Of a DNA stretch of 64,000 nucleotides, positions 35,827-43,638 are shown one piece after another. The stretch is taken from NCBI RefSeq assembly GCF_000027125.1, contig NC_017626.1. One strand, 5' to 3'. The notes beneath the pieces were generated by a model. That model had not been told where the DNA came from, did no database searches, and saw only the letters and a list, made by a program, of their open reading frames with translations. A program made the translations under genes and the position numbers. This DNA comes from Escherichia coli 042. Its GTDB lineage: Bacteria; Pseudomonadota; Gammaproteobacteria; Enterobacterales; Enterobacteriaceae. How positions within the stretch are numbered: the stretch's first letter is position 1; each line of letters starts with the position of its first letter.

Positions 35827-38800
35827 TTGAAAGAGAAAATAATGAGTAAGTACAACGAATTAGTTAAGAAGTTAAAAGAAATTTTTCAGATTGATCGACC
35901 AGAACTGGATTTCGGTATTTATCGTATTTTAAATGCACGTGCTGATGAAATTAACGACTATCTGGATAATAAGCTGAAGGCCAAAATCCAGTCTGCGCTG
36001 GCGGATGCAGGAAATGCCAATAAATCAGAATTAGAACATCAGTTGCAACTGACAATAAAAGCGGCAACTGATGCGGGTGTAGACCCTGCTGATAGCCCAA
36101 AAGTACAGGAGCTTAAAAAGCAACTGGCGGCTATGGCATCCGGAGCAAATGAGCATGAAAATGCAGTATTTTCCCATCTGCTCACTTTCTTTTCGCGTTA
36201 TTATGACAACGGCGATTTTATCAGCAAACGCCGTTATAAAGGTAATACCTACGCCATCCCCTATTCTGGCGAAGAAGTGATGTTGCACTGGGCAAATAAG
36301 GACCAGTACTACATTAAAAGCGGTGAAAACTTCGCTAATTATTCGTTCAAATTAGAAGACGGTCGTAAAGTTAGCTTTAAATTGCTCGCAGCGGACACAG
36401 CAAAAGATAACCGTAAAGATAATGAATTAGATCGCTGCTTTGTACTTATTGAGCCGCATGTTCGTACCAAAATTGATGAAGAAGGCGATGAGTACGAACA
36501 AGAATATAAGCCAGTAGAAGTGGTGAAAACTTCATCTGTGGTTGACGGTAAACTCGTTGAAACAGAAGAGTTAGTTATTCATTTCGAATATAAGGCAATG
36601 AAAAAGGGCACTAAGCAGGATGCTTTAGTGCAGTCCGCTATTTCAAAAATTCTGGCTGATAAAACAGTACAACAGCATTGGGTTGATCTTGCTAAACGTG
36701 CGCCAACCGAAAAAAATCCGTCACGTACAGAGTTGGAGCGTCATTTAACAACATATACCCAACGTAATACGGCTGACTACTTTATTCATAAAGATCTCGG
36801 TGGCTTTTTAACGAACGAACTGGATTTTTATATTAAAAATGAAGTAATGAATCTCGATAATGTGCAAAATGCAGAAGTGTTTGCTAATATTGAGAAACAA
36901 CTGCGCATGATTCAATGTTTGCGTGCTGTTGCGCTGGAACTCATCACTTTTTTGGCACAGATTGAGAATTTCCAAAAGAAACTTTGGACTAAGAAAAAGT
37001 TTGTTGTAGAGACAAACTATATATTTACCGTAGATAAGTTACCAGAGGAATTATATTCAATTGTCATTAAGAATGATGCCCAATGGGAACAATGGAAGCA
37101 ATTAGGTTTCCTCAGCGATTTTTCGGGAGATAGAGAGAAAACTCTGAAAGAAAAACAAGGGTTAATTGTTGATACTTCATTATTTGATTCCAAGTTCAAA
37201 GAGAAATTTATCAACAATATCGCTGATGTTGACACAAATGTTTCCGCTTATTTATATAGTGGAGATAATTATCAAGTGTTAAATCTTATTAAAATAAAAT
37301 ATAATAATAAAGTTGATGGTATATATATAGATCCACCTTATAATACCAATGCGTCTGAGATTTTATACAAAAACGGTTATAAGGATAGCTCATGGTGTTC
37401 TTTAATGAGTTCTCGTTTAGAGATAAGTAAATCCTTATTAAAAGAAAATGCAGCTACTTGTACAACTATTGATGAGTATGAAGTTGCTAATTTGGAATTA
37501 TTGCTAAAAGAAACGTTTACAGGATATCAAATCAGACCTGTTGTTATTGAATATAACCATCGAGGACGAGTTAAAAGTAATTTCGCTATTACCCATGAAT
37601 ATGCTTTATGGACCTTACCAGAAAATAAAGATGTAATATCGAGACAAGTTGAAATATCAGAAGAAATTAGGCGTAACTTGCGTAGAACTGGTTCAGGTTC
37701 TACTCGTGCCGAATCTGAAAGTCAATTTTATGGCATCGAAGTTGACAATAATACCCTCGAGATTGTCAATGTAACCGAAGCTTTACCAAGTTTAGATTCA
37801 GCAATTCCTACGCATCTAAATAAAGATACAACAATGGTATGGCCAGTAGATGACCAAGGGGTTGAGCGGCGCTGGTACTATGGGCGAGATCGTGTTATTC
37901 GCGAAGCTAAAGAAGGTACTGTTTGGGCGAAAAGAATAAAAGGTGAGATACAAATACATTACAGACAAGCAGGAAAACCTAAAATGCGTAAATCTGTATG
38001 GATTGGTCCAAAGCTTGACGCAAGTACCTATGGTTCGGAACTATTAAATAGTTTGTTTAACGTGACTCAGATTAATTTTTCTTTTCCAAAAAGTATTTAT
38101 GCGGTTAAGGAATGTTTAGAGTCGCTTAGTAATTCGAAGTATGCTCATTTCTTAGACTATTTTGCTGGCTCTGGTACTACAGGGCATGCAGTGGTAGATA
38201 TGAATAGGGATGATAATGGTTTTCGAAAATTTAGCTTGGTCGAACAAGGTGAATATTTTTATTCTGTTACCTTGCCTAGAGTAAAAAAAGCTATTTTTAC
38301 AACTGATTGGAAGTATGGAAAAGCACTAAGCTGTAATCCAGTTGAGCAGACATTAATAAAATATATTAAAATTGAGAGTTTTGAGGATACTCTTAACAAT
38401 ATAGCACTGAAACGTACTGAAACAACAAAGGATCTTTTCGACGATCTTAAAGAAATTCGAGAGGATTATGTTCTTAACTATATGCTTGAAACAGAAAGCA
38501 AAGGCTCACTACTCAATACTGATAATTTCAAAAAACCATTTAACTACGAAATGGATGTTACAACGGATTCCGCAGGTGCTACTGAGCGTAAGAACATCGA
38601 TTTAGTTGAAACTTTCAACTATCTCATTGGCTTACATGTGAAATCCATCGAATCCAATATCGAACGTGGCTATGTGCGTGTTGAAGGAACGCTACCAACT
38701 GGCGAGCGTACCCTTATTCTGTGGCGCGATTGCGACAAGATCGGCTATGAAGAATTGAATAAATATGCCAACAGATTCGATTTATATGCAAAAGAAAATA

Positions 38801-38946
38801 CGTTCGACGTTATCTATATCAATGGCGATCATAACTTACCTACCGCCTTTACCGTTGATGAAGAAGACGGCGAGATTGTTCGTAGCCTGAAAATCCGCCA
38901 GATCGAACCTGAATTCTTGAACCTGATGTTTGCGGAGGAGGTTTAA
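35827..38946 (+). CDS. DNA methyltransferase, N6-adenine/N4-cytosine (beta-class order), Type III Mod-like with N-terminal extension
   Basis: 1039 aa. Motif IV DPPY (IYIDPPYNT, about 37330) precedes motif I FxGxG (DYFAGSGTTG, about 38160), with a roughly 290-aa variable region between; about 500 aa of unrecognised N-terminal sequence. 6-nt gap after SNF2 gene. Confidence 0.8.
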   Translation: MKEKIMSKYNELVKKLKEIFQIDRPELDFGIYRILNARADEINDYLDNKLKAKIQSALADAGNANKSELEHQLQLTIKAATDAGVDPADSPKVQELKKQLAAMASGANEHENAVFSHLLTFFSRYYDNGDFISKRRYKGNTYAIPYSGEEVMLHWANKDQYYIKSGENFANYSFKLEDGRKVSFKLLAADTAKDNRKDNELDRCFVLIEPHVRTKIDEEGDEYEQEYKPVEVVKTSSVVDGKLVETEELVIHFEYKAMKKGTKQDALVQSAISKILADKTVQQHWVDLAKRAPTEKNPSRTELERHLTTYTQRNTADYFIHKDLGGFLTNELDFYIKNEVMNLDNVQNAEVFANIEKQLRMIQCLRAVALELITFLAQIENFQKKLWTKKKFVVETNYIFTVDKLPEELYSIVIKNDAQWEQWKQLGFLSDFSGDREKTLKEKQGLIVDTSLFDSKFKEKFINNIADVDTNVSAYLYSGDNYQVLNLIKIKYNNKVDGIYIDPPYNTNASEILYKNGYKDSSWCSLMSSRLEISKSLLKENAATCTTIDEYEVANLELLLKETFTGYQIRPVVIEYNHRGRVKSNFAITHEYALWTLPENKDVISRQVEISEEIRRNLRRTGSGSTRAESESQFYGIEVDNNTLEIVNVTEALPSLDSAIPTHLNKDTTMVWPVDDQGVERRWYYGRDRVIREAKEGTVWAKRIKGEIQIHYRQAGKPKMRKSVWIGPKLDASTYGSELLNSLFNVTQINFSFPKSIYAVKECLESLSNSKYAHFLDYFAGSGTTGHAVVDMNRDDNGFRKFSLVEQGEYFYSVTLPRVKKAIFTTDWKYGKALSCNPVEQTLIKYIKIESFEDTLNNIALKRTETTKDLFDDLKEIREDYVLNYMLETESKGSLLNTDNFKKPFNYEMDVTTDSAGATERKNIDLVETFNYLIGLHVKSIESNIERGYVRVEGTLPTGERTLILWRDCDKIGYEELNKYANRFDLYAKENTFDVIYINGDHNLPTAFTVDEEDGEIVRSLKIRQIEPEFLNLMFAEEV

Positions 38947-38948
38947 GA

Positions 38949-41900
38949 ATGGCTAAAAAACCGACCACCGGTAAAGCAGTTAAAAAAGAGACTAACAGCA
39001 AGCTGAGCTTTCATAAGCAGTTGGTTTTAAACCGCTTTATGTTCCATTTTTTTAAAGATGGCACATTGCAAGGTTTGAAGAATCGGTTAGGCGAGGATCG
39101 CTTTGAAGGCATCCATGAAGATGGCCAAAGCTTATTCTTCCATGAGCTGAGTAACTATTTATTCGAGGTCGATCTTATCGATCTCGATGAACTGCGTCGT
39201 TACGATCTCAATATCGTGCAGCACTGGCAGCAGATAACCGAGCACCGTAATCGTAAAGAAGACACAGTGCTGAACATGAAATATTTTCAGTACTTGTCGC
39301 TTCTGTTTACCGAGATCTACCTGGACTGGTACTTCAACCGTAAACAGCAATTACTCGATGGGCTAAATAACGAGCTGGCAGCATACAATGCTGAAAATGA
39401 TAAAACAGCAAAAGACCGGGCTAATCAGTTCAAATCATACGTTCTGGATGATTTGAATAAACTGGCATACTGGAACGCTACTGGTTCTGGTAAGACACTG
39501 CTATTACATGTCAATATTTTGCAATATTTACATTATTTCCAGAACGGTAATAGCCATCATTACCCGGATAAAATCATCCTGCTTACGCCGGATGAACGCC
39601 TATCGAAGCAACATTTAGATGAACTGGAAAACTCAGGATTTACCCAATACCAGTTATTCGATAAGAGTAAATCCGCGCCATTTAAAGGCACGATTGAAGT
39701 TATTGATATCAATAAACTTGCCGATGAAATGGGTGACAAAACTGTTGCCGTTGAGGCATTTGAAGGCAACAATCTGGTCTTGATTGATGAAGGGCATAAA
39801 GGCACAGGAAGTGCTGCTGGTGCCTGGATGCGCCGTCGTGACAAATTAACGCGTGACGGATTTGCGTTTGAATATTCAGCAACTTTTGGCCAGGCAGTGG
39901 CCGGTGGCAATAATGTTGAGGCAGTTGAAACAGAAATTCAGAAGAAAAAAGCAAAGCTGCTTTTTGAAACAACTGCCTTAGGTAAACTGAGCGAAGAACA
40001 GTTAGCGCAAATAGCATTAACCAGCGAAGAACAACGTGATGCGCGTATTCAGGCGACACGAGAAGTCTATGGGAAATCGATTCTGTTCGATTACTCCTAT
40101 AAATTCTTCTATGAGGATGGTTATGGTAAAGAATCACTGATTCTTAACCTTAATCCTGAAGAGGATAAAAAAGATGAGCGTCGGTATGAGTATTTTACCG
40201 CGTGTTTGCTCAGCTTTTATCAGCAACAATATTTATTCAATAAGAATAAAGAAAAATTAAATGAATTTAATATCGAAAAACCGCTATGGGTTTTTGTCGG
40301 TAACACCGTAAGTGGTGAAGATTCAGACATTCACGCAGTACTGCGTTTTTTAGCATGGTTTTTAAATCATGAATCGCAGGCAAAATCGTGGATTAAAGAT
40401 CTCATTGAAAATAAAGCGCGAATTCTTGATACCAAAGAGCGTAACATTTTTGAAAATCGCTTTACCGCACTAATGAACGGCCCGGAAGATATCTACGCAG
40501 ATATTCTTTCTCGTTTGTTTAACACCACTCACTCAGGTCAGAGACTGCGAGTTCTGAATTTAATAGGCAGTAAAGGTGAACTGGCATTACAGGTTGGTGA
40601 GGCCGAACCGTTTGGTCTTATCAATATTGGTGATGCACCGTCTCTTTACAAAATGTGTGAAGAGGATACGACATTTGATTATCAGAGAGATGATTTTGCG
40701 AAGTCACTCTTTCATACGTTAAATGACAAAGACTCGCAACTACATATTTTGATCGGCTCGCGAAAATTTACTGAAGGCTGGAGCAGTTGGCGCGTCTCAA
40801 CGATGGGATTGCTCAATATGGGCCGTGGAGAAGGTTCACAGATCATTCAGTTATTTGGTCGTGGCGTTCGCCTTAAAGGTCGCAATTATTCTTTGAAACG
40901 CAGTACACCCGGTGAGCGTCCGAAAGGGTTGCATCTGGAAAAATTAGAGACACTGAATGTATTCGGTGTACGTGCCGATTACATGGCAACCTTTAAACAA
41001 TACCTGGAAGATGAAGGGATTACGCCAAGTGACGAGATCCTTGAGCTGAATTTTGAAACTCGGCCAAATATGCCAGCAACCAGGCTTAAAACACTTAAGC
41101 TTAAAGATGGTTATAAAGATAATCAAAGACTCGGCTTTAAACGTGTCTATTTTCCCGAATTGTATGAAGTTCCTGCTGATTTTCAGGGGAAAATTAAGCA
41201 GCCGCATATTAAGCTGGACCTATACCCGAAACTTGAGTCGATTGATACCAGCAGAAAAGGGGACAATACTCCGGTTAACGTGCGTAATGAAGCGAAGTTA
41301 GATTATAAAATCATTAGTGCGTTTGATTTTGATCGGCTTTATCTCGCCATTCAGAATTATAAACTACAACGCGGCTGGTCAAATTTACGTGTGGATAAAC
41401 AACGTTTGATCGACTTTTGTACCGGTAAGACAAAGATCGGAAATAGTTGGTATACCCTTTTGATTCCAGCTTCAGAGCTTGAGATTAAGCAATATGCAGA
41501 TATTGCTAAGCAGGAAGATATTATGCTTCGTCTGCTGACTGATTATACTGATCGCTTTTACAACACATTGAAAAATGCTTATGAAGGTCAGTTTTATGAA
41601 GTCACGCAGGTGAAAGAAGATGATCCTGGTATGATCAAAATGTACCATTTCGAGATCGAAGAAACTGATGATGGGTTGGCATATGCCAGTCGGCTGGAAC
41701 AATTACAACAATTGGTCATCGACGGCGAAATCGGTAAAGCAAAATCCTGGAGTGCATCCGGGATGGTTGCTATTACCTTTGATAAACATCTCTATTATCC
41801 ACTTCTTTCGATTGAAAAAAATGCCAACATACCGCTAAAAATGCGACCGGCAGCACTGGGTGCATCAAGTGAGATTACTTTTGTCCATGATCTTCAGTCT

Positions 41901-42329
41901 TTTGTTGATTCGACAAAAGGGCAGAAAATTATTGGTGATAAAAGTTTATATCTGCTAAGAAATGCGGATTCTAAAAATAGAGGCCTGGGCTTTGCTACTG
42001 CGGGTAATTTTTATCCGGATTTCTTATTGTGGTTAGTCGATGATAAAAGTGGTAAACAATGGTTAAGTCTTATTGATCCAAAAGGCATCCGCAATCTTAA
42101 TCTTGATGATCCAAAGTTCGGATTATATAAAGAAATCAAGAATCTTGAACATAAATTATCGGATGATAACTTATCATTAAGTGCATTTATTGTTTCTGAA
42201 ACTTGTTATGTTGACTTAGTAAACGTACCTGATTCAAAAGAGAATCTGGAAGCCAGAAATGTGCTTTTTATTGAGGATACTGGCTCATTGTATCTGGAGA
42301 AATTATTCAGTAAGATGGTTAGCGAGTAA
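38949..42329 (+). CDS. SF2 helicase with C-terminal PD-(D/E)xK-like motif, Type III Res-like
   Basis: 1126 aa. Walker A NATGSGKT, DExH LIDEGHKG, SAT, QLFGRGVRLKG; C-terminal YPDFLLWLVDDKSGKQWLSLIDPKG. Start 2 nt after methyltransferase stop. Confidence 0.8.
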   Translation: MAKKPTTGKAVKKETNSKLSFHKQLVLNRFMFHFFKDGTLQGLKNRLGEDRFEGIHEDGQSLFFHELSNYLFEVDLIDLDELRRYDLNIVQHWQQITEHRNRKEDTVLNMKYFQYLSLLFTEIYLDWYFNRKQQLLDGLNNELAAYNAENDKTAKDRANQFKSYVLDDLNKLAYWNATGSGKTLLLHVNILQYLHYFQNGNSHHYPDKIILLTPDERLSKQHLDELENSGFTQYQLFDKSKSAPFKGTIEVIDINKLADEMGDKTVAVEAFEGNNLVLIDEGHKGTGSAAGAWMRRRDKLTRDGFAFEYSATFGQAVAGGNNVEAVETEIQKKKAKLLFETTALGKLSEEQLAQIALTSEEQRDARIQATREVYGKSILFDYSYKFFYEDGYGKESLILNLNPEEDKKDERRYEYFTACLLSFYQQQYLFNKNKEKLNEFNIEKPLWVFVGNTVSGEDSDIHAVLRFLAWFLNHESQAKSWIKDLIENKARILDTKERNIFENRFTALMNGPEDIYADILSRLFNTTHSGQRLRVLNLIGSKGELALQVGEAEPFGLINIGDAPSLYKMCEEDTTFDYQRDDFAKSLFHTLNDKDSQLHILIGSRKFTEGWSSWRVSTMGLLNMGRGEGSQIIQLFGRGVRLKGRNYSLKRSTPGERPKGLHLEKLETLNVFGVRADYMATFKQYLEDEGITPSDEILELNFETRPNMPATRLKTLKLKDGYKDNQRLGFKRVYFPELYEVPADFQGKIKQPHIKLDLYPKLESIDTSRKGDNTPVNVRNEAKLDYKIISAFDFDRLYLAIQNYKLQRGWSNLRVDKQRLIDFCTGKTKIGNSWYTLLIPASELEIKQYADIAKQEDIMLRLLTDYTDRFYNTLKNAYEGQFYEVTQVKEDDPGMIKMYHFEIEETDDGLAYASRLEQLQQLVIDGEIGKAKSWSASGMVAITFDKHLYYPLLSIEKNANIPLKMRPAALGASSEITFVHDLQSFVDSTKGQKIIGDKSLYLLRNADSKNRGLGFATAGNFYPDFLLWLVDDKSGKQWLSLIDPKGIRNLNLDDPKFGLYKEIKNLEHKLSDDNLSLSAFIVSETCYVDLVNVPDSKENLEARNVLFIEDTGSLYLEKLFSKMVSE

Positions 42330-42990: not shown

Positions 42991-43484
42991 TCACCCCCTA
43001 AAAAACTCTTTCCGATACCACTCTACAACCCCCTCAAAAGGGTAATTTTTACGCACCTGTGGCAACGCAATAATTTTTCCGTCAAAATCCCAGAATGACC
43101 TCTCAATGATCTCTCCGCCGTTTACCGCATCCAATACCAGTACCCGCATATTTTCATCCAGGCCAATCGTTCCTTTATCAAAGGCTTTATGATGTATCGC
43201 GCAAAGCGCCAGGCCATTGGGAATTTCACAAGGGCCACCATGTTGTTTCCATTTTATATGTGTCGCTTCCAGTGAGACGGTGGAGTTGCCGTAACAAATA
43301 TTAAAGCTACATATTGCGCACTGGTAGTTATAAGCGCGTAATACATGTTTGCGAAATAATGGGTCACGCTGCTTACGGATTTGCTGGAGAGCAAAAAAAG
43401 GCTCGTCAGCGATTTACTGGAAGCCATTGATATCCCTGGCAGTGAAATAATTGCGATCATGCTCGCAAATTTTCTGCGGTTCAA
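42991..43484 (-). pseudogene. HNH-nuclease-like gene, frameshifted
   Basis: Minus-strand frame ending at 42991 reads ...YNYQCAICSFNICYGNSTVSLEATHIKWKQHGGPCEIPNGLALCAIHHKAFDKGTIGL... but has no start; the ATG at 43484 is in another frame. Frames meet near the A7 run at about 43391-43399. Confidence 0.5.
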
Positions 43485-43638
43485 GCCTGCAAGCGAAGAT
43501 ATATTACCTTGATCTCATATGTTTTTTTACTTCCTGTGTGCCCTAATTGCCATGCGATGTTGCACCGACGCAAACCACCGTTTACGCCGGAGGAGTTAAA
43601 AGCGCTGATGGATGCGAATAAATCAAATTAATGAACGC

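Follow-up and report, generated by a model that had tools for sequence, protein, structure and literature searches.

We analysed a stretch of 64,000 nucleotides from the chromosome of Escherichia coli 042 (NC_017626.1; hereafter the window), in which a three-gene operon on the + strand encodes a SNF2 ATPase, a methyltransferase (Mod) and a large helicase-like, Res-like protein. The intergenic gaps measure 20 nt between the SNF2 and Mod genes and 2 nt between the Mod and Res genes, and an AGGAGG sequence lies within the 3' end of the Mod gene, ahead of the Res start codon. The main subject is the long methyltransferase, in which residues 1-389 are a constant, family-specific module (N-module) that was matched by no described domain and no solved fold. 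The open reading frame (ORF) of Mod spans 35827-38946 on the + strand. RefSeq and the homologues place the start codon at ATG 35842 (MSKYNEL...), while TTG 35827 is the mechanical ORF start only. Residue numbers of Mod are therefore counted from ATG 35842 throughout. The protein is named 'DNA methyltransferase' in RefSeq (WP_000049830.1), and the whole operon was found in 145 of 5426 complete E. coli genomes.

The SNF2 ATPase carries the motifs GLGKT at residue 66 and DEAH at residue 163. It matched the PADLOC DrmD model PDLC02619 (4.9e-198), reached 665 bits against the NCBIfam model DISARM_DrmD_b, which is under the cut-off of 950, and had RapA as its top match in the PDB (1e-35). The Res-like protein contains a Walker A motif (ATGSGKT, nt 39477-39497), a DEGH motif (39786-39797) and a PD...DxK nuclease motif (42015-42083). 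Its invariant motifs are GSGKT (residues 179-183), DEGH (280-283), PD (1023-1024) and DPK (1043-1045). Pfam assigned ResIII to it with a weak score (2.6e-7), as well as DEAD and SWI2_SNF2, and PADLOC reported REase_III only. No match to PDB chains, including EcoP15I Res, was obtained with the Res sequence or with a profile of 56 sequences. About 1000 of the 1126 Res residues are unannotated.

Domain organisation of Mod and natural exchange of its cassette

Mod shows the order of motif IV (DPPY), target-recognition domain and motif I (FxGxG) that is required of a beta-class amino-methyltransferase, and Pfam detected a single domain, N6_N4_Mtase (residues 491-790, 8e-16). In contrast to the classical Mod layout, in which a helical N-terminal domain of ~90 aa directly precedes motif IV in a protein of 600-700 aa, 496 residues precede DPPY. 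The PDB matches Mbo45V (6.6e-24), 6k0w (1e-19) and EcoP15I Mod (1e-12) are solved Mods that align from query residue ~457-459, which corresponds to their own residue ~85-90, and the alignment ends at query residue 859. The N-terminal excess over a classical Mod therefore amounts to ~370-390 aa and not to 500 aa. A further excess of ~155-175 residues is present at the C-terminus, where the C-domain (residues 880-1034) had no library match. The only existing models that cover the N-module are two whole-protein hidden Markov models of PADLOC: PDLC03646 (MTase_III), which covers Mod from end to end (1-1034 of 1057 positions), and PDLC03638, a Type III methyltransferase model of 816 positions with a compact N-module (query residues 89-194 and 246-465). 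The other 11 of the 13 matching PADLOC MTase_III models do not contain the N-module.

A preliminary description made from the letters of the window had assigned to Mod a lysine-rich N-terminal extension of roughly 500 aa without a recognisable motif, had placed DPPY about 500 residues in and had proposed an added, non-classical domain. The position of DPPY was correct, as the end of the extension given there (nt 37330) is motif IV, and neither the solved Type III Mods nor the 11 PADLOC models mentioned above contain the added domain. The extension is also real, since nothing upstream of about residue 460 was matched: Pfam returned zero families for this part of Mod and for 80 homologous N-terminal regions, NCBIfam and PHROGs gave zero matches for residues 1-460, and so did the PDB chains when searched for these residues by phmmer and with an 80-sequence profile. 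Its length has to be corrected, because residues 390-465 are an ordinary Mod domain, the helical equivalent of the classical N-terminal domain. The lysine enrichment is only mild, with 10.8% lysine in an AT-rich gene (37-44% GC). The extra C-domain of ~155 aa had gone unmentioned.

The boundaries of these parts are marked by a natural recombination event. A near-identical operon on an IMG/VR contig (L082) shares 94-100% DNA identity with the window across the SNF2 gene and the Mod gene up to nt ~37009 (residue 389). Identity falls to 40-60% between nt 37010 and 38479 (residues 390-879), is again at least 90% from nt 38480 and amounts to 92-100% through the Res-like gene. Among the complete E. 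coli genomes, the DNA of the N-module was present in 149 (at least 95.9% identity), whereas the cassette of the window was present in 85. Based on this mosaic and these genome counts, Mod consists of a constant frame (residues 1-389 and 880-1034) that encloses an exchangeable cassette for catalysis and specificity (residues 390-879). Within the cassette lie the helices at 390-465, the methyltransferase core and the target-recognition domain (546-750). The conserved ExFQKKLWxKKKF motif of the N-module sits at the cassette junction. The features are compiled in Table 1.

Shuffling of specificity occurs in other restriction-modification systems: the target-recognition domains of Type I hsdS genes lie between conserved regions, and allelic mod genes have a variable centre. 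As in these cases, constant partner-facing ends flank a variable, recombining specificity segment in Mod. The exchanged unit of the window differs from them in that it measures ~490 aa and takes in the entire catalytic core together with the target-recognition domain, and in that the constant N-terminal part is a large module of several parts with an unmatched fold.

Two insertions were seen in genes of this family. The partial Mod homologue of Methylovulum sp. (P0077, 670 aa) contains an in-frame insert, a DUF559 (Vsr-like) endonuclease domain in a variable loop near residues 425-440, and returns to the normal sequence after it. In one E. coli genome (strain E54, NZ_CM180513.1, 4708447-4710693, hit H23), an IS1B element splits the methyltransferase cassette.

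Table 1 Coordinates of the operon genes, of the parts and motifs of Mod, and of genes inserted at the Mod-Res junction of homologous loci. Positions refer to the window, except in the last row, where they refer to the locus named.
Feature	Mod residues	Position	Strand	Remarks
RapA/DrmD/BrxHII-like SNF2 ATPase, 963 aa		32930..35821	+	Pfam SNF2-rel_dom and Helicase_C; PADLOC DrmD
Long Mod-like N6-adenine DNA methyltransferase, 1034 aa	1-1034	35842..38946	+	PADLOC MTase_III PDLC03646; RefSeq WP_000049830.1
Res-like superfamily 2 (SF2) ATPase-nuclease, 1126 aa		38949..42329	+	PADLOC REase_III PDLC03654, full length
Constant N-terminal module (N-module)	1-389	35842..37008	+	Right boundary is the natural recombination breakpoint at nt ~37009
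Long antiparallel helical hairpin	33-120	35938..36201	+	Weakly conserved; length 41-94 aa across the family
Aromatic/basic-rich loop	121-160	36202..36321	+	YDxGDFISxRRYKxxTYAIPYxGEEVxLHWANxDQYYIK; low-confidence prediction
Antiparallel beta-sheet region	161-254	36322..36603	+	Strands in AlphaFold2 models
Variable acidic insert in the beta-sheet	201-242	36442..36567	+	Length and charge compared across the family
Helical bundle	255-389	36604..37008	+	Motifs DYFIHKDLxxFLxxELDFYIKNE (312-334) and ExFQKKLWxKKKF (375-387)
Swappable cassette	390-879	37009..38478	+	Short helices, beta-class methyltransferase core, target-recognition domain
Catalytic motif IV, DPPY	497-500	37330..37341	+	D497, P498 and P499 invariant
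S-adenosylmethionine-binding motif I, DYFAGSG	772-778 (FAGSG 774-778)	38155..38175	+	D772 and G776 invariant
Constant C-terminal domain (C-domain), ~155 aa	880-1034	38479..38943	+	Not in classical Mods
Mod-Res inserts in homologous loci		L004 13120-14217; L018 8491-9558; L022 4316-5395; L010 13081-14867; L046 7833-9600; L075 10312-11421; L052 13084-16317		Also in L012, L076, L073 and L077

Conservation, predicted structure and co-inheritance of the N-module

Residues 1-460 were compared by phmmer to 1.84 billion representative proteins, which revealed 2365 clusters (50% identity) with E <= 0.001. Among the best 150 of these clusters listed, the match was nearly always N-terminal and most full-length proteins measured ~1000-1100 aa. 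Relatives of Mod were present in at least 547 stretches of species-representative genomes. From these, a first set of 80 loci was retained, chosen by motifs inside the N-module. The 80 loci span Proteobacteria, Bacteroidota, Chlorobi, Firmicutes, Planctomycetes, Verrucomicrobia, Actinomycetes, Spirochaetes and one candidate-phyla-radiation genome. Mean pairwise identity was 74% for residues 126-160 and 60% for residues 311-400, compared to ~47% for the catalytic core and 20% for the target-recognition domain. As the best-conserved stretches of the N-module exceed even the catalytic core, the module is not a chance extension of the ORF.

AlphaFold2 predicted the full-length Mod with a mean predicted local distance difference test (pLDDT) score of 84.3 and a predicted template modelling score of 0.78, and the N-terminal region alone with a pLDDT of 82.3. 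The predicted parts of the N-module are, in this order, a short helix with the motif LDFGIYRI, a hairpin of ~88 residues, the aromatic/basic loop, an antiparallel sheet of eight strands (155-254) and a helical bundle, for which the full-length model contains helices at 319-336 and 347-383. A fold search yielded no match of the N-module among PDB folds, and a profile-profile comparison with Res returned a probability of 0.1. The Foldseek search of AFDB50 gave 296 matches with E <= 0.001, and the 50 listed were all annotated as methyltransferases and aligned over most of the N-module.

In the loop, residues 135-152 had a pLDDT below 50 in both AlphaFold2 models. The best-conserved stretch of the whole Mod (residues 121-160, with many invariant aromatic and charged residues) is at the same time its worst prediction. 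The combination of high conservation and a pLDDT below 50 is typical of a segment that orders on a partner, and the models thus suggest that the loop may become ordered only in a complex. The acidic insert at 201-242 has a net charge of -7 in a module of approximately neutral net charge, and with 42 aa the E. coli version is the longest in the family (range 11-42, median 19).

To compare the history of the parts, we used 41 loci with complete genes for SNF2, Mod and Res, drawn from many phyla, and calculated both pairwise distances and the adjusted Rand index (ARI) for four clusters per part. The distances of the N-module correlated best with those of Res (r = 0.87, Mantel p = 0.0005), followed by the C-domain (0.70-0.73), SNF2 (0.49) and the cassette of the same protein (0.19). 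The partial correlation between N-module and Res given SNF2 was 0.83, whereas that between N-module and SNF2 given Res was -0.13. The clusters of Res were reproduced by the N-module with an ARI of 1.00, by the C-domain with 0.80, by SNF2 with 0.10 and by the cassette with 0.05. The C-domain also correlated with Res in its distances (r 0.72). The N-module hence tracks Res, although it adjoins the SNF2 gene on the DNA and is parted from the Res gene by the swapped cassette. In these comparisons of sequences, the N-module groups exactly with its unusual Res-like partner of 1126 aa and not with SNF2 or with its own catalytic core. The association also holds for gene content: a search started from Res recovered a Mod with N-module in 26 of 26 evaluable loci, and Res was present in 72 of the 73 evaluable loci found with the N-module.

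Linkage to the SNF2 gene

It had been proposed in the preliminary description that the extension could be a docking module for the SNF2 partner, and a check of whether it is present whenever the SNF2 gene is linked had been suggested there. Because the first 80 loci had been chosen by motifs of the N-module, they were unable to test such a linkage, and separate searches were started from Res and from SNF2.

Within the set chosen by the N-module, SNF2 was present in 58 of 64 evaluable loci, mostly right before Mod. The gene order was SNF2-Mod-Res in 48 and Mod-Res-SNF2 in three (all Pasteurellaceae) of the 51 loci with both SNF2 and Res. SNF2 was absent in six loci, for which 5-10 kb upstream and 10 kb downstream of Mod were covered, and approximately 10 of the 25 loci in the Res-started set lacked it as well. 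All conserved motifs of the N-module were intact in 15 loci without SNF2 within 10 kb, and no consistent substitute gene was found upstream of Mod in the 11 of these loci that were examined.

The SNF2-started search gave 48 loci with an evaluable full-length homologue. Only 15 of these encode a long Mod, while a beta-class methyltransferase without N-module was found in 25 and no related methyltransferase within 5 kb in the remaining eight. Two loci of the second group, L143 and L148, were checked by profile search. In both, the SNF2 gene is followed by a short Mod (568 and 526 aa, respectively; PDLC03636) and then by an ordinary Res (898 and 915 aa; PDLC03648). As the same SNF2 family lies directly upstream of short Mods without N-module, the SNF2 partnership is independent of the N-module. 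To judge from these gene neighbourhoods, SNF2 is a facultative accessory gene of the operon, and SNF2-assisted Type III systems may be recurrent across Type III subfamilies. The full-length SNF2 homologues of these two three-gene loci (L143 10001-17259; L148 9998-17205) show 39-46% identity within this SNF2 family. Downstream of Res, L143 encodes a 1629-aa PDC-M54A protein and L148 a LmuB/PbeC-like ATPase.

The idea that the N-module recruits the linked RapA-like SNF2 ATPase to Mod could draw on the frequent position of the SNF2 gene before Mod and on the N-module-SNF2 distances within one clade (r = 0.88). It is contradicted by the 15 SNF2-less loci that retain every conserved motif and by the 25 of 48 loci in which a full-length SNF2 accompanies a methyltransferase without the module. 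Furthermore, the partial correlation with SNF2 given Res and the ARI of 0.10 do not agree with it, and in DISARM and ARMADA the methyltransferases that operate with relatives of this SNF2 are unrelated and PglX-like (bioRxiv 10.1101/2025.09.15.676423). Docking of SNF2 is thus largely refuted and very improbable, and the extension does not accompany every linked SNF2 gene. It is also not the ordinary N-terminal domain of stand-alone Type III systems, since classical Mods lack it, but it is standard in the whole subfamily, including two-gene Mod-Res members without SNF2.

Proposed role, relation to known systems and genomic setting

The boundaries of the N-module and its conservation, the exchange of the cassette, the shared clustering of N-module and Res and the independence of SNF2 were observed directly. 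From these observations we infer, with a probability of roughly 50%, that the N-module serves as a scaffold for assembly and communication, through which Mod dimerises and docks to, or communicates with, Res. In the Mod2 dimer of EcoP15I, the interface contains the intertwined helical N-terminal domains of both Mod subunits, and ModA makes extensive contacts to Res through its C-terminal domain (PMC4490356). We read the N-module and the C-domain as the constant parts of a modular methyltransferase and as a larger form of the EcoP15I frame. Such a frame would most likely hold the Mod dimer together and link it, both physically and by allostery, to the helicase-nuclease, which is large, divergent and Res-like. 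The cassette would read and methylate DNA and set the specificity, so that its exchange could alter the recognised sequence while the Mod-Res interface is left untouched and need not re-evolve. SNF2 is an optional third component, independent of the N-module, and the loop at 121-160 would be the best candidate for a segment that is ordered on partner binding. The conservation of the N-module lies above that of the core and far above that of the target-recognition domain, as expected of a surface facing a conserved protein partner and not variable DNA.

Several points weigh against the scaffold. Contact between Mod and Res is a prediction. Within one of the two major clades, the N-module correlates with SNF2 (r 0.88) as highly as with Res (0.91). 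Co-inheritance can also be obtained by clonal linkage outside a cassette that moves via gene conversion between conserved junction motifs. As the fold of the N-module has no characterised relative, its function is read from context alone, and the invariant lysine, arginine and aromatic residues as well as the KKLWxKKKF helix would suit DNA binding equally. The latter leads to the main rival explanation, a DNA-handling module that binds DNA non-specifically as a backbone clamp or as a sensor of DNA ends or structures, and that positions or retains the complex or licenses Res. The invariant basic residues R28, R119, R130, K159, K192, R198, K317, K332 and K384-386, the tyrosine, phenylalanine and tryptophan residues of loop 121-160 and the conserved basic helix end FQKKLWxKKKF would be in line with this, and high conservation is compatible with a sequence-independent DNA contact. 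However, the N-module bears no likeness to a known DNA-binding or modified-base reader fold and is empty in Pfam, its net charge is approximately neutral with a strongly acidic insert, and a role in DNA handling alone fails to explain the exact co-clustering with Res. We therefore regard it as unlikely, although it is the strongest competitor of the scaffold.

A second enzyme fused to the methyltransferase, for instance a nuclease or a nucleotide-processing domain, might be suspected from the invariant residues D23, D125, E144, E145, N152, D154, D312, H316, E326, D328 and E375. This is highly improbable: no enzyme family or fold was matched, the ExK-like triplet E145-V-K147 is not conserved (M147 in E. 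coli), much of the N-module is modelled as a coiled helical hairpin and long helices, and Res already carries a conserved PD...DxK nuclease motif. A PD-(D/E)xK nuclease within the N-module (GEEVK; DYFIHK...ELDFYIK) was considered and rejected, because K147 is unconserved and the second motif lies within helices. Two observations might be taken to mean that the N-module is an ordinary Mod N-terminal domain of greater length: residues 390-465 do behave as the helical domain at the N-terminus of classical Mods, and the complete Mod is filed under Type III in PADLOC. Yet solved Mods align only from query residue ~457 (their ~85-90), just two of the 13 PADLOC models touch residues 1-389, and neither profile nor fold searches detected a classical Mod there, which leaves this explanation with hardly any probability. 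A more far-reaching proposal is that residues 1-389 and 880-1034 form an undescribed fold that defines a separate restriction-like class, composed of a plug-in cassette, an adaptor module, a non-classical Res-like motor-nuclease and an optional SNF2. Its mechanism, for example the signalling of non-self to the nuclease, could differ from that of EcoP15I, and the loop at 121-160 would be a switch that passes methylation status or DNA binding to Res. We consider this possible but rather doubtful.

The comparison with EcoP15I (Mod2Res1; PDB 4ZCF; PMC4490356) reveals common features. Both Mods are beta-class N6-adenine methyltransferases with DPPY, target-recognition domain and motif I in this order. 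In both systems, the Mod gene is placed directly before, and translationally coupled to, a Res gene for an SF2 ATPase with a C-terminal PD-(D/E)xK-type motif, and the candidate sites for dimerisation and for contact with Res lie in the terminal domains and not in the core of Mod. The window differs by a Mod of 1034 aa compared to 644 aa, with an extra N-module of ~390 aa and a C-domain of ~155 aa, and by a Res of 1126 aa without detectable sequence or profile similarity to EcoP15I Res. Furthermore, a SNF2 gene is usually attached in the family of the window, and repeats for phase variation are lacking. Simple-sequence repeats typical of phase-variable classical mod genes were not found in the operon, and phase variation was consequently dropped as an explanation. 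The Type III mechanism comprises ATP-dependent cleavage at two unmethylated sites in inverse orientation, hemimethylation of a single strand and a complex of the composition Mod2Res1/2. Judged by the Type III architecture and motifs of Res and by its filing in PADLOC, the system appears Type III-like, yet without similarity to EcoP15I Res it would stand far from the EcoP15I paradigm.

Mod and Res match PDLC03646 and PDLC03654 end to end and belong to the same families as these models. The models, however, represent whole proteins in which the N-module is neither separated nor named, and SNF2 is outside the PADLOC definition of Type III. Other defence systems also encode a RapA-like SNF2 ATPase beside an adenine methyltransferase in a defence island, namely DISARM class 1, ARMADA and BREX type 3, and the SNF2 of the window matched best to DrmD models. 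The methyltransferase of DISARM class 1 and ARMADA is PglX-like, whereas that of the window is a Mod-like N6_N4 enzyme to which no PglX or PglXI model matched in PADLOC, and the three-gene operon is devoid of DrmA, DrmB, a YprA-like helicase, DrmC, PglZ and BrxC.

These systems, together with the DUF499 systems, were excluded because their defining genes are absent. For DISARM class 1, DrmA, DrmB (DUF1998), DrmC (PLD) and the PglX-like DrmMI are missing from the operon and its annotated neighbourhood, and the SNF2 score is below the DrmD cut-off. ARMADA is defined by the helicase ArmC, which is YprA-like, and the methyltransferase ArmB, which is PglX-like (bioRxiv 10.1101/2025.09.15.676423), while the Res of the window is REase_III in PADLOC and its methyltransferase has the motif DPPY and not NPPW. 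BREX type 3 contains PglZ and BrxC, and BREX-related systems a DUF499 ATPase, alongside methyltransferase and SNF2 (PMC12839542). Neither PglZ and BrxC nor a DUF499 ATPase is encoded in the operon and its flanks.

In the literature searched, no description was found of the Mod family, and none of its N-module, its organisation around a cassette or its association with SNF2. The Mod and Res families are already catalogued as whole-protein PADLOC models, and public records list a generic methyltransferase. On present evidence, the operon is thus not a new kind of system. It represents a widespread family that is unannotated beyond 'DNA methyltransferase' in databases and Type III restriction-modification in PADLOC, and in which more than half of Mod and nearly all of Res have no characterised relative. 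The N-module is a domain family missing from Pfam, and the map of N-module, cassette and C-domain makes the wiring of a methyltransferase to a nuclease-helicase testable. The map likewise makes testable how specificity is exchanged as a cassette, which is useful for engineering as well as for the reading of methylomes. Moreover, since the same SNF2 family accompanies short, classical-type Mod-Res pairs, the question arises what a RapA-like SNF2 contributes to Type III-like systems.

The operon lies in an island with 37-44% GC compared to ~52% in the flanks. Upstream are an antirestriction gene, radC, a yeeU/cbtA toxin-antitoxin pair, Ag43 and an IS3 element. The ORF that follows the operon is encoded on the opposite strand. 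Directly downstream (window ~42991-43631; L001 22992-23632), two endonucleases are annotated as fragments in RefSeq, namely a phosphorothioated-DNA-binding restriction endonuclease and an HNH endonuclease. The setting of the operon is a decayed integrative defence island.

Many database entries for Mod are N-terminal fragments of ~430-500 aa annotated as 'partial'. In approximately 25 of 72 homologous loci, the junction between Mod and Res carries 1-3 kb of extra genes (Table 1). Among the inserted genes are those for a Fic protein, an AIPR/MzaE-like protein and a MAD3-like AAA ATPase, the last accompanied by a small partner ORF, and some ORFs resemble DUF1016-type nucleases by eye. Embedded defence cassettes thus seem to have a hotspot at the Mod-Res junction.

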